A stretch of 48,066 bases of DNA from Acidiferrobacterales bacterium (GTDB taxonomy: Bacteria; Pseudomonadota; Gammaproteobacteria; Acidiferrobacterales; UBA6901), in assembly GCA_035256085.1 (NCBI GenBank), contig DATEYP010000055.1, positions 1 to 48,066 on the forward strand, written 5' to 3'. A program made the position numbers and the translations under genes. Of the stretch, positions 2,440-43,703 are shown one piece after another (within the stretch, counting starts at the first letter, position 1; each line of letters opens with the position of its first letter). A model generated the notes under the pieces. The model was not told the origin of the DNA and ran no database searches. It saw nothing but the letters and a program-made list of their open reading frames with translations.

Positions 2440-4440
2440 ATGCCATCACGTAGAGAGTTAGCCAATGCCGTCCGTGCCTTGAGTATGGATGCGGTGCAGA
2501 AGGCTAAGTCCGGCCATCCCGGGGCGCCCATGGGTATGGCGGACATTGCCGAGGTTCTGTGGAACAGCCACCTGAAGCATAATCCCTCCAATACCAAATG
2601 GGCGGATCGCGACCGCTTCGTGCTGTCCAACGGCCATGGCTCGATGCTGATCTATTCCTTATTACACCTCACCGGCTACGACTTGCCGATGGATGAGCTG
2701 AAGAAGTTCCGGCAGCTGCACTCCAGGACCCCGGGGCATCCCGAGTATGGCTACACCCCGGGCGTGGAGACCACCACCGGCCCGCTGGGGCAGGGTATTA
2801 GCAATGCCGTGGGTATGGCGATCGCCGAAAAGGCGCTGGCCGGGCAATTCAATCGCGACGGCCACCGGATTGTTGATCACTACACCTACACCTTCATGGG
2901 CGATGGCTGCATGATGGAGGGCATCTCCCACGAGGCCTGCGCCCTGGCGGGAACCCTCAAGCTGGGCAAGCTCATCGCCTTCTGGGATGACAACGGCATT
3001 TCCATCGACGGCCACGTGGAAGGCTGGTTCACCGATGATACCGCCAAGCGTTTCGAGGCCTATGGCTGGCACGTGGTGCGTAATGTCGACGGACATGACG
3101 CGCAGGCGATCGACAAGGCCGTCCATGAGGCCAAATCGGTCAATGACAGACCGTCGCTGATCTGCTGCAAGACCGTGATCGGCTTTGGTGCGCCCAACCT
3201 GTGCGGCAGTCATGACTGTCACGGCGCCCCGCTGGGCGATGACGAAATCAAGGCCACGCGCGAAAATCTGGGCTGGAGTCATGCGCCGTTCGAGATACCC
3301 GCAGACATCTATGCCGGCTGGGACGCCAAAAAGAAGGGCGCCGCCGCCGAGCAGCACTGGCAGCAGAAATTCGCCGCTTACAAGGCGGCCCATCCCGCGC
3401 TGGCGGCCGAATTCGAGCGCCGCGCCATCAAGGGTGAACTGCCGGCCGATTGGGCGGCCAAGTCCGCCGCCTTCGTCAAGGCCGCGGCCGACAAGGGGGA
3501 TGGTCCGGCCACGCGCAAGGCCTCGCAGAATTGCATCGAGACCTTTGCCGCTATCCTGCCTGAAATCATGGGCGGCTCTGCGGATCTGGCGCCATCCAAC
3601 CTGACTACCTGGTCCAAATCCAAGGCGCTGTCCGACACCGTCTCCGACGGCAACTATATCCACTACGGCGTGCGCGAGTTCGGCATGGCGGCCATCGTCA
3701 ACGGCATTGCCCTGCACGGCGGCTTCATCCCGTTCGGCGCCACCTTCCTGATGTTCTCCGAATACGCCCGCAATGCCCTGCGCATGGCGGCGCTGATGAA
3801 GATACAGAATATCAATGTATTCACCCATGACTCAATCGGTCTGGGCGAAGACGGCCCCACGCATCAGCCGGTGGAGCAGACCGCCACCCTGCGCATGATT
3901 CCGCGCATGTCGCTGTGGCGTCCCTGTGATGCCGTCGAGACCGCTGTGGCCTGGAAATCCGCTATCGAATACAAGCACGGCCCGACTTCCCTGATCCTGT
4001 CGCGCCAGAACCTGCCGCATCAGCCGCGCAGCGAGCAGCAGATCGCCAATATCGTCAAGGGCGGTTATGTGCTGAAGGATTGCGCCGGCACGCCGGAGCT
4101 GATTTTCATCGCCACCGGTTCCGAAGTGGCGCTGGCGGTCGGCGCCGCCGACGCCCTGACGGCCAGGGGCAAGAAGGTGCGCGTGGTGTCCATGCCCTCG
4201 GTGGACAGATTCGAGGCGCAGGATGAGGCCTACCGCGCGTCCGTCCTGCCGGCGGCGGTGACCGCCCGCGTGGTGGTCGAAGCCGGTGTGACGGCGTCCT
4301 GGTACAAATATGCCGGTTTCAAAGGCAAGGTGGTGGGTATCGATACCTTCGGTGAATCCGCCCCGGCCGGCGAGTTGTTCAAGCACTTCGGCTTCACGGT
4401 GGACAACGTCGTGAAGACTGCCGAGGCCGTGCTGGCATAA
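2440..4440 (+). CDS. tkt: Transketolase (Calvin-cycle cluster)
   Basis: 666-aa ORF with SD GGGAGA upstream. ThDP motifs are [14 protein letters not shown] and [13 protein letters not shown], with full-length transketolase architecture. Confidence 0.97.
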
Positions 4441-4456
4441 CGATTTCCCTATTTGA

Positions 4457-5572
<1,116 letters not shown>

Positions 5573-38236: not shown

Positions 38237-38319
38237 CAGATACAAGATACAAGGGAAAAGATACAAGCAAGCAAGGCATCGGCTTTTACTTGAATCTTGT
38301 ATCTTGAACCTTGTATCTG
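38237..38319. repeat. Hairpin built from GATACAA heptamer units in the cbbL-cbbS spacer
   Basis: Left arm CAGATACAAGATACAAGGGAAAAGATACAAGCAAGCAAGG. Right arm CTTGAATCTTGTATCTTGAACCTTGTATCTG is its imperfect reverse complement. Confidence 0.85.
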
Positions 38320-38377
38320 ACTTCCAGAGCGCCGGTCAAAGTCGCGCAACTGAAACGAACATTTAGGAGTAACAGAC

Positions 38378-38734
38378 ATGAGTGAGATGCAAGATTACAA
38401 ATCAAGCCTGACCGACACGACCAGCCGCAAGTTCGAGACCTTCTCCTACCTGCCGGCCATGACCAGCGATGGCATCAAGAAGCAGGTGGAGTATCTGGTG
38501 AAGCAGGGCCTGAACCCGGCCATCGAGCACAGCGAGCCGGAAAACGCCTTCGACCACTACTGGTACATGTGGAAGCTGCCGATGTTCGGCGAGACCAACG
38601 TGGACAAGGTGCTGGCCGAGGCCGAGGCCTGCCACAAGGCGCACCCGAACAACCACGTGCGCCTGATTGGCTACGACAACTTCAAGCAGTCGCAGGGCGC
38701 CTCGATGGTGATTTTCCGCGGCAAGATGAAGTAA
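38378..38734 (+). CDS. cbbS: RuBisCO small subunit
   Basis: 118 aa with [19 protein letters not shown] and RLIGYDN. Confidence 0.97.
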
Positions 38735-38760
38735 GTCGTTACCTGGCAAGGGTAAGGAAA

Positions 38761-38797
38761 GCCCCTGCTCGGGTAACCGGGCAGGGGCTTTTTGTTT
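38761..38797 (+). terminator. Strong intrinsic terminator after cbbS
   Basis: 12-bp stem GCCCCTGCTCGG / CCGGGCAGGGGC with one G-U pair, loop GTAA, then TTTTTGTTT. Confidence 0.85.
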
Positions 38798-38804
38798 AAT
38801 GGGA

Positions 38805-38962
38805 TTGAACCGCCAAGAACGCCAAGAACGCCAAGAACGCCAAGATTGTCCAAGTTGTTCCTGGAGGCTCGGGGTGATTCAGCAGAGGTGAACTTATAAC
38901 GAAGCCGTCCTTGGCCCTTTAACCCATATTCCTTGGCGTTCTTGGCGTCCTTGGCGGTTCAA
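38805..38962. repeat. Long hairpin (about 30-bp arms of CGCCAAGRA units, about 95-nt loop) upstream of cbbQ; ORF-less relative of the 39815-40284 cassette
   Basis: Left arm TTGAACCGCCAAGAACGCCAAGAACGCCAAGAACGCCAAG. Right arm CCTTGGCGTTCTTGGCGTCCTTGGCGGTTCAA is its reverse complement with 1 mismatch over about 30 nt. Confidence 0.9.
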
Positions 38963-38979
38963 CGTGTAGTTGAGAGGAC

Positions 38980-39816
38980 ATGAGCATGAGCAAAACAGCC
39001 GTGAAGACCGCGGACACAATGGATGTCAGTCAATATCTGGTGACGCAGGAACCGTACTACCGGCCAGTGTCGAACGAAGTTGAACTGTACGAGGCCGCCT
39101 ACAGCGTGCGCATGCCGGTGATGTTGAAAGGCCCGACCGGTTGCGGCAAGTCGCGCTTTGTCGAGCACATGGCGTGGAAGCTAAAGAAGCCGCTGATCAC
39201 CGTGGCCTGCAACGAGGACATGACCGCCTCGGATCTGGTTGGCCGTTATCTGCTCGATGCCTCCGGCACCAAGTGGCACGATGGTCCGCTGACCGTGGCT
39301 GCGCGCATCGGCGCGATTGCCTATCTCGATGAAGTCGTCGAAGCGCGCCAGGACACCACCGTGGTCATCCACCCGCTGACCGATCATCGCCGCCAGTTGC
39401 CGCTCGAGAAGAAAGGCGAGATGGTGAACTGCCATCCTGACTTCCAGCTCGTGATCTCCTACAACCCGGGTTACCAGAGCCTGATGAAGGATCTCAAGCA
39501 ATCGACCAAGCAGCGTTTCGGTGCCATCGATTTCGATTACCCGAATGCGGAAGTGGAATCCGAAATCATCATGCACGAAACGAGGGTCGACAAGGCAACC
39601 GCCGAGAAGCTGGTGCAGATCGCGCACCGTGCCCGCAACCTCAAGGGCCATGGTCTCGATGAAGGCATCTCGACCCGCCTGCTGACCTACGCCGGCGCGC
39701 TGATCGCCAAGGGCATTGCACCTCGGGCCGCCTGCCAGATGACCCTGGTGCGTCCGATCACCGATGACCCGGACATGCGCGATACGCTGGACGCGGCGAT
39801 AAATACATATTTTTAA
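38980..39816 (+). CDS. cbbQ: RuBisCO activase subunit CbbQ (MoxR-type AAA+ ATPase)
   Basis: 278 aa. N-terminal QYLVTQEPYYRP, Walker A GPTGCGKS, Walker B IAYLDEVVEA. Alternative start ATG 38986 has better SD spacing. Confidence 0.96.
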   Translation: MSMSKTAVKTADTMDVSQYLVTQEPYYRPVSNEVELYEAAYSVRMPVMLKGPTGCGKSRFVEHMAWKLKKPLITVACNEDMTASDLVGRYLLDASGTKWHDGPLTVAARIGAIAYLDEVVEARQDTTVVIHPLTDHRRQLPLEKKGEMVNCHPDFQLVISYNPGYQSLMKDLKQSTKQRFGAIDFDYPNAEVESEIIMHETRVDKATAEKLVQIAHRARNLKGHGLDEGISTRLLTYAGALIAKGIAPRAACQMTLVRPITDDPDMRDTLDAAINTYF

Positions 39817-40284
39817 ACCGCCAAGACGCCAAGGACGCCAAGAAAAACAAACGGAATAGAAAAATGGAACCGAGCAAGGAGCTTGATAATCTGACGAACT
39901 CAGTAATTGGGGCGGCGATAGAAGTTCATAAACACCTTGGTCCGGGCTATCTTGAGAGTGTTTATGAAGAGGCGCTTGGCATAGAGCTGACGGAGCGCGG
40001 CATTCCGTATCGTCGACAACACCCTGTCTCGGTGTCGTACAAAGAGAAGACCGTTGGTGAAGGAAAGCTGGATGTGCTGGTAGCCGACAAATTGATAGTT
40101 GAGCTGAAGGCGGTTGAAGCACTGTTGCCGGTACACAAGGCGCAGGTAATCTCCTATCTCAAGGCGACCAGGTTTCATCTCGGCTTGTTGATCAACTTCA
40201 ATGTATCCGTGCTTCGCGATGGTATTCAGCGAATCATTTATTCAAATTGATTTTCTTGGCGTCCTTGGCGCCTTGGCGGTTCAA
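39815..40284 (+). mobile_element. Inverted-repeat cassette carrying a GxxExxY gene; fills the whole cbbQ-cbbO spacer
   Basis: Left IR is AAACCGCCAAGACGCCAAGGACGCCAAGAAAA (39815-39846). Right IR is TTTTCTTGGCGTCCTTGGCGCCTTGGCGGTTCAA (40251-40284). They are reverse complements with 2-3 mismatches and share the TTGAACCGCCAAG... terminus of the 38805-38962 hairpin. The interior is visibly more AT-rich than the flanks. Confidence 0.6.
39864..40250 (+). CDS. GxxExxY protein (PD-(D/E)XK nuclease-like small protein)
   Basis: 128 aa with the diagnostic GPGYLESVYEEAL motif (G-x-x-E-x-x-Y). It also has ...DVLVADKLIVELKAV... and LLINFN, typical of this family. Confidence 0.88.
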   Translation: MEPSKELDNLTNSVIGAAIEVHKHLGPGYLESVYEEALGIELTERGIPYRRQHPVSVSYKEKTVGEGKLDVLVADKLIVELKAVEALLPVHKAQVISYLKATRFHLGLLINFNVSVLRDGIQRIIYSN

Positions 40285-40292
40285 GAAAATAT

Positions 40293-42626
40293 ATGACAGT
40301 CGATCTCAAGGAATACCACGCCCTGCTCGATGAGCTGCACCCACAGGTGCGCACCACGCTCGAAGCGAGCTTTGCCGAAGCGGCGCGGGTGATGACCCCG
40401 CAGGGGCTGCACAACTGGCTGGAAGGCGCCAAGGGCCTGTCACAACTCGGCCGCGGCAATGAGTTGGTCATTACCTACATCCAGTCCATGCCGGCCGTGG
40501 CGAAGGAAGCCGGAGAAGAAGTCATCAAGGATGCCATCATCGCCGCGATGAAGCTGTCGTCGATGGTGAGCGGTGAAGTCATCCAGCTCATGTTCGGCAC
40601 GCTGCCGACCGCCGCGCACCGGCTGGGCGATGCCGAGCTGCTGCGCGGTTACCTCGGGTTGATCCACCAGCTGTCGTCCAAGGTGCCGCGTGGCCTGCGA
40701 CCCATGTTGTCGCATCTCGACGAGTTGCTGGCCAAGCTGACGCTCGGCGGCCTGCGCCGCTGGGCGCTGTGGGGCGCGCAGGCGCACCTGCGCGACTTTG
40801 CCACACAACTGGCGTACTTCGATCTCAAGAGCGCCGACAGTCAGGCGATGTTGCAGAAGGAGCGGCGTGGCACGCTGTTCTTCGACAACCAGCGCAAGCT
40901 CAATTTCTATTTGCGCGCCTTCTGGGGTCGCGACTTCTTCATGCGCCCAACCTCGGGCGATTTCGAGACCCGCGAAGGCTACAAGCCGTTTATTGAAACG
41001 CGCGTCATTCATATGCCGGACGCATTCGATGATTTTGCCGGGCTGCCGGGGAAGGATCTGTATCGCGCCACGGCCGCGCACGCCGCCGCGCACCTGGTTT
41101 ACACGAAAAAGCCGATGTCCATGGAGCAGCTCAACCCGGCACAGATGTTTATCATCGGCCTGTTCGAGGATGCGCGTGTCGAGGCCTTGGCGGTGCGCGA
41201 ATTCCCGGGAATGAAGCAGATGTGGTCGGCGATCCATGCCAAGGTGCGGGAAGTGAGTTGCCCGACCAGCCCGGTCGTGAGCCTGCTCGAACGGCTGGCC
41301 TATGCCTTGCTGGACGAGGGCTACCACGATGATGACGGCCTGATCCAGGAAATGTCGGGCGCGTTCCGTGGCGAGTTTGCCAAGCGCCCGGAAGACAACC
41401 AGCTCAGCTGGGACCTTGGCGTCACGCTTTACAACAAGCTCGGCGAGCGCGGCGGCATCCCGAGTCTGCGCGTGCTGGAATCGATAGCGATTCCCTACCG
41501 TGACGACAATCGCTACTGCTGGGCCTCGGATGAAATTGCCTGGCACGCGGCCGAGTACGTCCCGGCACCGAAGCAGGTGCGCAAGTATGTCTCGGCGCTG
41601 GAGATGGCGCACGAGGTCGATTGCGAACTGGCCGGCGACGACGCCCAGGAGATCTGGGTGATCAACACGCCGTTCTATCTCGACCAGGAAGGCTGCACGA
41701 TTAATGAACTGGAGGGAAAGGAACCTGTTTCCGAGCCCTACCATTACCAGGAATGGGATTACAACGTGCAGTTGCATCGCCCGAGCTGGGCGACGGTGCT
41801 GGAAAAGCGCCAGAAGAAGGGCGACCCGCAGGAAATCGACCGGATTTTGATCGAGAACCGGCCAGTGGCCTCGCGCCTTCGCCACATCATCGACGCCATG
41901 CAGCCGGAGGGCGTGCAGCGCTTCCGTCGCCAGGAAGATGGTGTTGAGATCGATCTCAACGCCGCGATCCGTGCCATGATCGACATCCGCATGGGCGAGA
42001 TGCCGGACCAGCGCATCAATATCCGCATCGAGCGCAAGGTGCGCGACCTCGCGCTGCTGGTGCTGCTCGACCTGTCGGAATCGACCAATGAGAAGCTGGG
42101 CGATTCCGAGAAGACCGTCATTCAGCTGGCGCGCGAAGCCACCTCGCTGTTGTCCTGGGCCATCGACCGCGTCGGCGATCCGTTCGCCATCCACGGCTTT
42201 GCCTCAGACGGCCGCCACGACGTCGAGTATTACCGCTTCAAGGACTTCGACGACAGCTACGACGACGAAGCCAAGGCCAAACTCGCCGGCATGCAGGGCG
42301 GACTGTCGACCCGCATGGGCGCGGCGCTGCGCCACGCCGCCACGTTCCTGTTCAAGCAGCGCGAGCAGAAGAAGCTGATCCTGCTGGTCACCGACGGCGA
42401 GCCGGCCGACATCGACGTGCGCGATCCGCAGTACCTGCGCCACGACACCAAGAAGGCGGTGGAAGAACTGGCGGCCCGCGGCGTGCGTACCTTCTGCCTG
42501 ACGCTCGATCCGAATGCCGACGACTATGTCTCACGCATCTTCGGTCCCAAGGGCTACATGGTGGTCGATCGCGTCGACCGCCTGCCGGAGCGTTTGCCGA
42601 TGCTGTATGCCGGTCTGACACGCTGA
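40293..42626 (+). CDS. cbbO: RuBisCO activase adaptor CbbO (von Willebrand factor A domain)
   Basis: 777 aa. The C-terminal vWA has MIDAS LLDLSEST...LLVTDGEPADID. The position after cbbQ and the NorD/CbbO-like N-terminal region support the call. Confidence 0.95.
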   Translation: MTVDLKEYHALLDELHPQVRTTLEASFAEAARVMTPQGLHNWLEGAKGLSQLGRGNELVITYIQSMPAVAKEAGEEVIKDAIIAAMKLSSMVSGEVIQLMFGTLPTAAHRLGDAELLRGYLGLIHQLSSKVPRGLRPMLSHLDELLAKLTLGGLRRWALWGAQAHLRDFATQLAYFDLKSADSQAMLQKERRGTLFFDNQRKLNFYLRAFWGRDFFMRPTSGDFETREGYKPFIETRVIHMPDAFDDFAGLPGKDLYRATAAHAAAHLVYTKKPMSMEQLNPAQMFIIGLFEDARVEALAVREFPGMKQMWSAIHAKVREVSCPTSPVVSLLERLAYALLDEGYHDDDGLIQEMSGAFRGEFAKRPEDNQLSWDLGVTLYNKLGERGGIPSLRVLESIAIPYRDDNRYCWASDEIAWHAAEYVPAPKQVRKYVSALEMAHEVDCELAGDDAQEIWVINTPFYLDQEGCTINELEGKEPVSEPYHYQEWDYNVQLHRPSWATVLEKRQKKGDPQEIDRILIENRPVASRLRHIIDAMQPEGVQRFRRQEDGVEIDLNAAIRAMIDIRMGEMPDQRINIRIERKVRDLALLVLLDLSESTNEKLGDSEKTVIQLAREATSLLSWAIDRVGDPFAIHGFASDGRHDVEYYRFKDFDDSYDDEAKAKLAGMQGGLSTRMGAALRHAATFLFKQREQKKLILLVTDGEPADIDVRDPQYLRHDTKKAVEELAARGVRTFCLTLDPNADDYVSRIFGPKGYMVVDRVDRLPERLPMLYAGLTR

Positions 42627-43509: not shown

Positions 43510-43703
43510 CCGGAGTTTGACCGTCACGACGGCCACAAAATATTTCCCTCCCCCTGCCAAGGGGGAGGGCGAGGGAGGGGGTGTACTGTTAACGGTATGC
43601 ACGGACCGTCTCATCTCACCCCCATCCCAACCTTCCCCCTTCAAGGGGGAAGGAGAATAATGATTCGCCGCCATCCGGTGGCTCACGGTGTTATCGGGCG
43701 CCT
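43510..43703. repeat. MITE-like repeat, copy 1 (three conserved hairpins)
   Basis: The 169-bp core (43535-43703) is about nine-tenths identical to 44617-44785. Hairpins are CCCTCCCCCT-GCCA-AGGGGGAGGG and CCTTCCCCCT-TCA-AGGGGGAAGG. Confidence 0.9.

Follow-up and report, generated by a model that had tools for sequence, protein, structure and literature searches.

Bacteria contain several described systems in which a small gene is held between inverted repeats. In the repetitive extragenic palindromic (REP) or REPIN-RAYT systems, the gene of an HUH/Y1 IS200-like (IS200/IS605-like) transposase lies between inverted copies of its own hairpin repeat, a species-specific 20–40-nt palindrome tagged GTAG or CGTC, and cargo-less hairpins are far commoner, in intergenic DNA. 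The intervening sequences (IVSs) of 23S rRNA, as in Coxiella and Leptospira, enclose a small open reading frame (ORF) of the S23p family (PF05635) in a long terminal stem. That of Coxiella has a stem of 28 bp, which RNase III cuts in vitro, and just inside it a variable number of tandem GACAGAT heptamers (PMC4990558). The present analysis concerns a cassette in a 48,066-nucleotide stretch of DNA (the window; contig DATEYP010000055.1 of assembly GCA_035256085.1) from an Acidiferrobacterales bacterium, in which a gene of the GxxExxY family (TIGR04256/PF13366), predicted to encode a nuclease, is carried inside a hairpin between cbbQ and cbbO. These two genes encode the subunits of the CbbQO activase, a complex of Q6O1 stoichiometry (PMC4660213). 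Together with related loci, referred to below by L numbers, the cassette points to a widespread, apparently undescribed genomic element, a gene-in-hairpin cassette accompanied by many empty hairpins in at least 10 bacterial phyla.

The 470-nt cbbQ–cbbO spacer is a single cassette, with 33–34-nt arms around the nuclease gene (Table 1). The near-perfect core of the left arm, TTAAACCGCCAAGACGCCAAGGACGCCAAGAAA (39813–39845), pairs with TTTTCTTGGCGTCCTTGGCGCCTTGGCGGTTCAA (40251–40284), and weaker complementarity detected by a repeat search widens the arms to 39803–39858 and 40239–40294 (56 nt, 84% complementary). The RNA fold of 39800–40300 has a predicted energy of -179.4 kcal/mol versus -142.7 +/- 6 in dinucleotide shuffles (z = -6.1; equalled by 0 of 100 shuffles), and the base of the predicted stem pairs the last cbbQ codons with cbbO positions -10 to -1. 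The cbbQ stop codon TAA (39814–39816) falls within the left terminus, and the C-terminus that it closes, ...DAAINTYF-stop, is kept in relatives. The right arm ends at 40284, 8 nt upstream of the cbbO ATG (40293), and no Shine-Dalgarno sequence is present in these 8 nt, GAAAATAT. Across the cassette G+C is 0.46–0.51, versus 0.64–0.68 in the flanks. An earlier note on this DNA had described an intact 128-aa GxxExxY ORF inside an inverted-repeat hairpin that fills the spacer, with a left repeat beginning at the bases of the cbbQ stop codon, a right repeat stopping 8 nt before cbbO with no obvious Shine-Dalgarno sequence, and a G+C content below that of the flanks. All of these points are borne out, the ORF by full-length matches to both family profiles, and the complementarity of the arms lies far above that of shuffled sequence. 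No sigma-70-like promoter was found in 38300–40600, hence none upstream of the GxxExxY gene, and 38600–40500 contains no Rfam family and no rRNA match, the lone sRNA match being sub-threshold (E = 0.79). An intrinsic terminator at the right end of the cassette was considered and rejected because no T-run follows 40284; the terminator scan flagged nothing there.

A second hairpin, overlooked in the earlier note, lies in the cbbS–cbbQ spacer ~850 nt upstream and carries no gene. It shares the TTGAACCGCCAAG termini of the cassette, its right arm (38929–38962) is TTCCTTGGCGTTCTTGGCGTCCTTGGCGGTTCAA, ending CTTGGCGGTTCAA, and its predicted RNA fold reaches -78.8 kcal/mol. The same termini at a second site indicate that the arms are arrays of 8–9-nt units behind a fixed TTGAACC end rather than arbitrary inverted repeats. 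The unit consensus is RCNRAG plus 2–3 nt, with GCCAAG used in the window. The gene cbbQ is itself bracketed, as the right arm of the first hairpin is complementary to the left arm of the second (39813–39845), and the entire cbbQ gene is thus enclosed by long-range pairing of an alternative kind, or by an inverted repeat in the DNA.

The coupling of GxxExxY genes to such arms was assessed in a homolog sample of 80 loci from genomes (57–78% identity, at least 10 phyla) and 80 from metagenomes. Dinucleotide-shuffled downstream flanks (730 shuffles) served as the control for bracketing; pairing flanks across loci is invalid for this purpose because different loci share the same arms. The arms exceed the 99th percentile of shuffles in 57 of the 73 testable loci and exceed all 730 shuffles in 52. 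Typically the left arm ends 0–50 nt upstream of the ATG and the right arm starts 0–30 nt past the stop codon. The commonest unit is GCCAAG, others being ACAGAG, GCAAAG, ACAAAG, GCAGAG and GCCAGG, and both arms of a locus match in unit type (14 concordant non-GCCAAG loci versus 0.85 expected by permutation, p ≤ 1e-4). Distant members of the family (32–47% identity), taken from annotated records, carry the same bracketing build; for those in Bacteroides, Bernardetia and Sphingomonas the identity is 39–45%. The gene lies between radA and the gene of an FAD protein in Bacteroides finegoldii, with arms TTCACCACAGAGGACGCAGAGGACACGGAG and its complement; between ade and a guanylyltransferase gene in Bernardetia, with ACAGAG units; between fabD and fabG in Sphingomonas, with arms TTCACGCGAAGGCGCGAGGACGCGA and TCGCGTCTTCGCGGCTTCGCGTGAA that are 92% complementary; and between two hairpins of GCAGAG units in Gemmatirosa. 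In Prevotella it is followed by three tandem empty hairpins of ACAAAT units annotated as protein. At L380 1889–2320 (Prevotella nigrescens NZ_CP082843.1), the "hypothetical protein" WP_147278314.1 is an ORF across three 120-nt tandem ACAAAT-unit hairpins. In 57 of 95 distinct contexts the gene runs in the same direction as both neighbours, and in 7 it is antisense to both, a bias that fits expression by read-through. The GxxExxY family is coupled to this arm architecture across phyla.

Empty hairpins were sought by an exact scan of one genome per species with the pattern TTGAACCGCCAAGN{1,3}CGCCAAG. The TTGAACCGCCAAGN1-3CGCCAAG termini were located in at least 120 loci spread over many phyla, including Planctomycetota, Chloroflexota, Verrucomicrobiota, Cyanobacteria, Myxococcota, Armatimonadota, Lentisphaerota and several proteobacterial classes; Lacipirellula limnantheis I41 and Sorangium So ce1099 and So ce513 are among the named genomes. 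Paired termini are mostly 60–250 nt apart, and the larger "loops" in these 120 loci consist of host genes flanked by two separate hairpins rather than of cargo. In 110 well-formed hairpins the ends are TTGAACC/GGTTCAA, the outer flanks are weakly A-rich and T-rich, and no consistent target-site duplication is found at any of six offsets; MITE-type (miniature inverted-repeat transposable element) transposition was rejected on this ground. By intergenic class, 50 cargo-less hairpins divide into 27 co-directional, 13 convergent and 10 divergent, which is not informative. Apart from GxxExxY, this arm family was found with a single other cargo, an HNH endonuclease gene (PF01844) between good GCCAAG-type arms at L069 404–1050. 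The bracketed-ORF scan also returned an unplanned positive control, a classical REPtron at L101 4928–5524, in which a RAYT-like (IS200-type, HHRRSIRLKGYDY motif) gene is flanked by REP-like hairpins.

The window protein matches TIGR04256 (GxxExxY; 3.6e-43, 146.6 bits, cut-off 35, profile positions 2–116 of 116) and PF13366 (PDDEXK_3; 4.3e-42, 143.6 bits, cut-off 22, profile positions 2–117 of 117). The signature G28-x-x-E31-x-x-Y34 is intact, as are D70, E80-x-K82 and Q94-x-x-x-Y98, and residues E31, D70, E80, K82, Q94 and Y98 are conserved at ≥99% across 147 distinct homologs. The AlphaFold model (pLDDT 94.3, pTM 0.87) contains an alpha/beta nuclease core modelled at pLDDT 94. The fold search ranked lambda exonuclease, LHK-Exo and Cas4 SSO0001 highest, all of them weak matches (E ~1e-3, TM ~0.5) confined to the nuclease core, and a sequence search of the PDB returned no relative. 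These matches, with which the E...D...ExK...QxxxY residues agree, place the protein in the RecB/Cas4/lambda-exonuclease branch, and the sequence and model are consistent with a RecB/Cas4-like PD-(D/E)XK nuclease of predicted activity. Values of dN/dS of 0.04–0.13 in the cbb-resident clade, including a relocated copy described below, reflect purifying selection. A 2012 superfamily survey gives the function of GxxExxY as "Unknown", with multiple transfers (PMC3424549). The protein has zero matches in PADLOC and PHROGs, so a defence or toxin reading is without support. The PF13366/TIGR04256 family is very large, with 7,990 of 8,000 scored candidates matching in one search. It occurs in 8 of 72,556 plasmid records (megaplasmids or chromids) and in 0 of 50,697 phage records, no close relatives are present in 2.9 million viral contigs, and the hairpin terminus was found in 14 viral contigs only. 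Plasmids and phages were rejected as carriers because the family is nearly absent from the former records and absent from the latter. No divergent GxxExxY paralogs were found within the fetched loci.

Table 1. Features of the cbbS–cbbO region of the window.
Feature	Position	Strand	Description
cbbS	38378..38734	+	RuBisCO small subunit; ORF; PF00101 RuBisCO_small on identical contigs L288–L290
Terminator-like G+C hairpin and T-run after cbbS	38760..38797	+	AGCCCCTGC...GCAGGGGCTTTTTGTTT; separate from the repeat element
Cargo-less hairpin	38805..38962		left arm TTGAACC plus four CGCCAAGAA-type 9-mers; loop ~80 nt; z = -6.6
cbbQ	38980..39816	+	MoxR-type AAA+ Rubisco activase subunit; ORF; PF07728/PF08406 CbbQ_C on identical contigs
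Left arm, cargo-bearing hairpin	39813..39845	+	TTAAACC plus GCCAAG units, 8–9-nt period; TTAAACCGCCAAGACGCCAAGGACGCCAAGAAA
GxxExxY gene	39864..40250	+	128 aa, intact; predicted minimal RecB/Cas4/lambda-exonuclease-like PD-(D/E)XK nuclease
Right arm, cargo-bearing hairpin	40251..40284	+	TTTTCTTGGCGTCCTTGGCGCCTTGGCGGTTCAA; begins 1 nt past the GxxExxY stop codon
cbbO	40293..42626	+	VWA-domain adaptor subunit of the CbbQO activase; PF00092 VWA on identical contigs

Domain calls for cbbS, cbbQ and cbbO were made on contigs identical to the window. The cargo-less hairpin begins a few bases past the terminator-like hairpin that follows cbbS. The latter was read directly from the sequence, the terminator scanner having a loop limit of 8 nt that left it unflagged, and it has equivalents, again with a T-run, in L121, L282 and L295. 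A spurious ORF encoding a GVLGVLGG-type peptide runs over the GCCAAG arms on the minus strand at 38671–38853.

The history of the cbbQ–cbbO junction was traced in relatives. The spacer is ≤150 nt in 53 of 73, which agrees with the statement of the earlier note that the two genes are normally adjacent; this holds only in part, as the spacer ranges from 6 to 1271 nt and contains various inserts. Among 80 CbbQ relatives, none has a window-type cassette in this spacer. The relative L204 (CbbQ 94% identical) has an empty 23-nt spacer, and the 51-nt spacer of L205 (CbbQ 92% identical) is a cargo-less ACAGAG-type mini-hairpin at ~3772–3823 that begins at the TAA stop codon (TTTTTAACCACAGAGATCACAGAACACACAGAG...CTGTGGTG). 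The L213 spacer contains a DUF559 gene between GGGAGAGGG-type palindromes, and other relatives have a ~100-aa conserved ORF or a methyltransferase gene. The cassette does occupy the junction in the window lineage, L281–284, L293, L294/295 and L121, which form one clade in a neighbour-joining tree; L281–284 is an 88%-identical lineage whose CbbQ and CbbO are each 87% identical (global alignment). Other cbb-sited copies (L308, L323, L358 and L370), of which L370 has GCAGAG arms, branch outside this clade, so repeated colonisation of the junction is probable. In a comparison of the window with L282, 4 of 67 arm positions differ, where the synonymous divergence of the ORF (dS = 0.86) predicts ~51% at neutral sites; the arms are conserved far above the neutral expectation. 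In L295 the element's own TTGAACC provides the TGA stop codon of cbbQ.

One relocated copy (P0003, L285–287; 88% identical) falls within the cbb clade and has a GGDEF-EAL gene and truD as its neighbours. It aligns with the cbb-site cassette over 537 bp (L285 2923–3459) at 90.6%, and the match takes in 24 nt of the CbbQ tail (AAINTYF-stop) and 27 nt of the CbbO head (MSIDLKD) before it breaks off. What moved was thus the hairpin together with flanks of ~28 and ~35 nt, a span that corresponds approximately to the extended stem base. A few other pairs have synteny breakpoints 21–41 nt outside the termini or inside the arms. The comparisons proposed in the earlier note thus yielded an empty site (L204) and no target duplications, together with further copies of the termini, one in the window and the others in the at least 120 loci elsewhere; the cassette is not a fixture of all relatives without other copies, being absent from some relatives and present at other sites. 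The suggestion that GxxExxY genes travel as hairpin cargo is strongly supported by the bracketing of 57 of 73 loci and of distant members, by variable presence and absence, and by the one relocation.

Other inserts at the cbb genes have features of their own. The ~100-aa conserved ORF, which has no match in Pfam and carries an acidic tail (MNRPTAYVGIHADVYGGMTDIGRMIRDAW...DDEDE), occurs in the cbbQ–cbbO spacer of L202, L203 and L206–L212 and in the cbbS–cbbQ spacer of L281–L284 (1784–2104); it is absent from the window by tblastn and may encode an accessory protein, so far uncharacterised, that serves Rubisco or its activase. The window also contains, at 43527–43660, a G/C-rich palindromic repeat element (CCCTCCCCCTGCCAAGGGGGAGGG ... 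CCTTCCCCCTTCAAGGGGGAAGG) that is 82% identical to L027 5244–5379. Repeats of this kind flank the DUF559 (PF04480) nuclease gene of L213 and occur without cargo in the L251 spacer. DUF559 and its palindromic repeats have the appearance of a third pairing of cargo and arms, comparable to the GxxExxY cassette.

The earlier note had also likened the layout to ORF-bearing IVSs. A scan for three GACAGAT-type heptamers returned at least 120 loci from many phyla, with strict GACAGAT...ATCTGTC hairpins in 15. The cargos bracketed by heptamer arms are four-helix-bundle proteins, confirmed for L383 as PF05635 (8.5e-28). The S23p cassettes of L383 and L430 lie inside 23S rRNA genes and are true IVSs, and those of L397, L429 and L488 lie among protein-coding genes. 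Because S23p cassettes occupy both kinds of site, the analogy reflects a real architectural kinship, and the view that IVSs represent one of the placements taken by a wider class of hairpin cassettes with tandem-repeat arms is supported as architecture. Cargo and arm type go together, S23p with heptamer arms and GxxExxY with 8–9-mer arms: the heptamer loci include seven S23p genes and one divergent GxxExxY gene with direct repeats, S23p is found in 0 of 180 GxxExxY loci and not in the window, and 0 of 173 GxxExxY loci have a 23S rRNA match. The window cassette and the IVSs share a long terminal stem around a small ORF of ~120–130 aa (28 bp in Coxiella, 33–34-nt arms here), tandem short repeats in or beside the arms, and insertion within a transcript whose two sides must remain functionally joined. 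They differ in placement, as the cassette lies in an mRNA spacer rather than in rRNA helix 25 or 45; in cargo (PD-(D/E)XK versus the S23p/PF05635 four-helix bundle); in arms, which here consist of 8–9-nt RCNRAG-type units and a TTGAACC terminus instead of heptamers; and in the state of the ORF, which is decaying in Coxiella and under strong purifying selection in the window.

Similar comparisons can be made with mobile elements. As in REPIN-RAYT systems, a nuclease gene lies between inverted copies of its own hairpin repeat (for the window genome, the count is the two copies in the window), cargo-less copies predominate in intergenic DNA, target-site duplications are absent, inheritance is largely vertical, the enzyme is under selection and the repeat type is enzyme-specific. 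However, the enzyme is a RecB/Cas4-like PD-(D/E)XK nuclease rather than an HUH/Y1 transposase, the arms are 30–35 nt of tandem 8–9-mers rather than a tagged palindrome, arm sequences are common to several phyla rather than species-specific, and the gene sits inside a single hairpin, sense to the host operon. MITE and Foldback elements likewise have terminal inverted repeats and short non-coding derivatives that outnumber coding copies, and the arms of eukaryotic Foldback elements are also made of tandem short repeats. Unlike these, the present hairpins have no target-site duplication and no DDE transposase, and cargo-less loops are not evidently derived from a coding copy.

The level at which the arms are maintained was addressed by counting sense-strand G.U pairs and A.C mismatches in 87 loci, where selection on RNA only predicts an excess of G.U. 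The complementarity is strand-symmetric, which fits maintenance of the arms at the DNA level. RNase III cutting is compatible with this symmetry, since a near-perfect stem is a substrate either way, and cleavage of the cbbQ–cbbO stem is plausible by analogy with IVSs and compatible with the stem length. The reading given the most weight, at about even chances, is a composite REPIN/RAYT-like and IVS-like hairpin system in which the nuclease acts on its own arms, combined with read-through and RNA steps. In such a system the nuclease would recognise a DNA form of its arms (hairpin, cruciform or duplex tandem units), and its cuts there would propagate or maintain the hairpin population. One of the hairpins would hold its gene, which would rely on read-through from the host operon for expression. 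In the mRNA the stem would close the insert off and bring the cbbQ stop codon next to the cbbO start codon at its base, which may be why an insertion between coupled genes is tolerated. RNase III would probably cut the stem as well, as it does in IVSs, favouring cbbQ output over cbbO in keeping with Q6O1.

Several observations weigh against this reading. Action of the nuclease on its arms is inferred from co-occurrence, specificity and analogy, and a GxxExxY gene lies nearby in 0 of the 120 hairpin loci listed (tblastn; a positive control worked). A significant bracket is missing in 16 of 73 homolog loci, and two distant GxxExxY genes from low-G+C genomes (L378 1404–1912; L475 ~4630–5310, locus reverse strand) have direct, not inverted, flanking repeats of ~50 nt, each of which holds a small hairpin. 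The sole documented relocation carried its ~28 and 35 nt of flank, unlike a clean transposition of hairpin ends, and no target-site duplications are seen. In most pairs of highly similar cassettes, synteny extends as far as the regions were compared, indicating that inheritance is mainly vertical and movement rare. The RNA part of the reading is further opposed by the lack of a G.U excess (106 G.U versus 129 A.C, p = 0.15) and by the 10 of 50 cargo-less copies that lie in divergent intergenic regions.

The same two results also weigh against a purely RNA-level, IVS-like element, the reading of the earlier note, in which RNase III cleavage would free a monocistronic GxxExxY mRNA and split cbbLSQ from cbbO, the arms being kept for RNA structure and the nuclease being unrelated to them. 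Such an element would account for the stem of >30 bp with its z of -6.1, the 57:7 sense bias and the lack of a promoter-like site; RNase III excises similarly built IVSs in vitro (PMC4990558), S23p cassettes in rRNA have identical counterparts between genes, and the Q6O1 stoichiometry would gain from uncoupling. It is nevertheless unlikely as the whole explanation, given that the cross-phylum conservation of arm sequence and the strict cargo–arm specificity exceed the needs of a generic double-stranded RNA stem, and that a nuclease with an intact active site, kept at omega ~0.07, is left unexplained.

A free-standing homing endonuclease gene, as in T4-like phages and the Vsr/DUF559 group, would give the nuclease a role at the insertion site instead: GxxExxY would cleave the empty cbbQ–cbbO junction or other specific intergenic sites and be copied in by repair, the hairpin merely insulating the insert. 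PD-(D/E)XK-fold homing endonucleases are known in the Vsr/DUF559 group (PMC3424549), and a DUF559 gene with its own palindromic repeats fills this very spacer in L213. Small nuclease genes between conserved co-transcribed genes (cbbQ/cbbO, fabD/fabG, after radA), empty and occupied alleles among relatives (the 23-nt spacer of L204 versus the window, L281–284, L293–295 and L121) and a junction occupied repeatedly in separate lineages (L308, L323, L358, L370), one of which has different arms, are all in line with homing. But proteins 60–70% identical, and even near-identical ones, at many unrelated sites are hard to square with long site-specific targets, a conserved bracketing hairpin and abundant cargo-less hairpins with identical arms would not be expected, and mostly vertical, syntenic inheritance under sustained purifying selection differs from the typical gain–decay cycle, making homing quite improbable. 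Least probable, and only a slim prospect, is that the cassette is a domesticated part of the operon, its hairpin a host regulator of the cbbQ:cbbO ratio or a stabiliser of the upstream mRNA, and GxxExxY a protein with an unrelated housekeeping role whose association with the hairpin is historical. The pairing of the cbbQ stop region with cbbO at the stem base would suit such a part, as would the retention of the cassette at the junction, with ORF and arms conserved, across lineages with saturated synonymous sites (dS > 2). Close relatives nonetheless lack it, having the 23-nt spacer of L204 or the ~100-aa ORF, DUF559 or methyltransferase gene in its place, the same cassette is found in hundreds of unrelated operons and phyla, and arm–cargo specificity points to a functional link between protein and arms.

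A broader extension of the composite reading, in which the nuclease acts on its own arms, is more tentative, its chances being put somewhat below even: GxxExxY nucleases and tandem-repeat-armed hairpins may form an unrecognised cross-phylum class of self-propagating or host-symbiotic DNA elements, a PD-(D/E)XK counterpart of REPIN-RAYT, with S23p IVSs and DUF559-in-palindrome cassettes as sister systems. The finding is a variant of known IVS-like and REPtron-like kinds, with a substantial chance that it represents a distinct class of element. No prior description of a link between GxxExxY/PF13366/TIGR04256 (or S23p) and hairpins, and no paper tying PF13366/TIGR04256 to any DNA or RNA structure, was found in the literature searched, although papers beyond that search may exist.

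The association provides a large family without a known function, PF13366/TIGR04256, with a concrete and testable substrate, the hairpin. It joins three things that have been treated separately, namely REP-like intergenic hairpins, small "selfish-looking" nuclease genes in operons and ORF-bearing rRNA IVSs, and it offers an origin hypothesis for IVSs as one placement of a general cassette. It also explains many spurious "hypothetical proteins" as ORFs read across GCCAAG-type repeats. For the cbb operon, the predicted structural device would let a 470-nt insert sit between the genes of the Q6O1 complex and would possibly tune their ratio. If the proposed action of these small proteins on the hairpins that carry them is true, a single explanation would cover three large families of unknown function as well as the origin of IVSs, a puzzle decades old.

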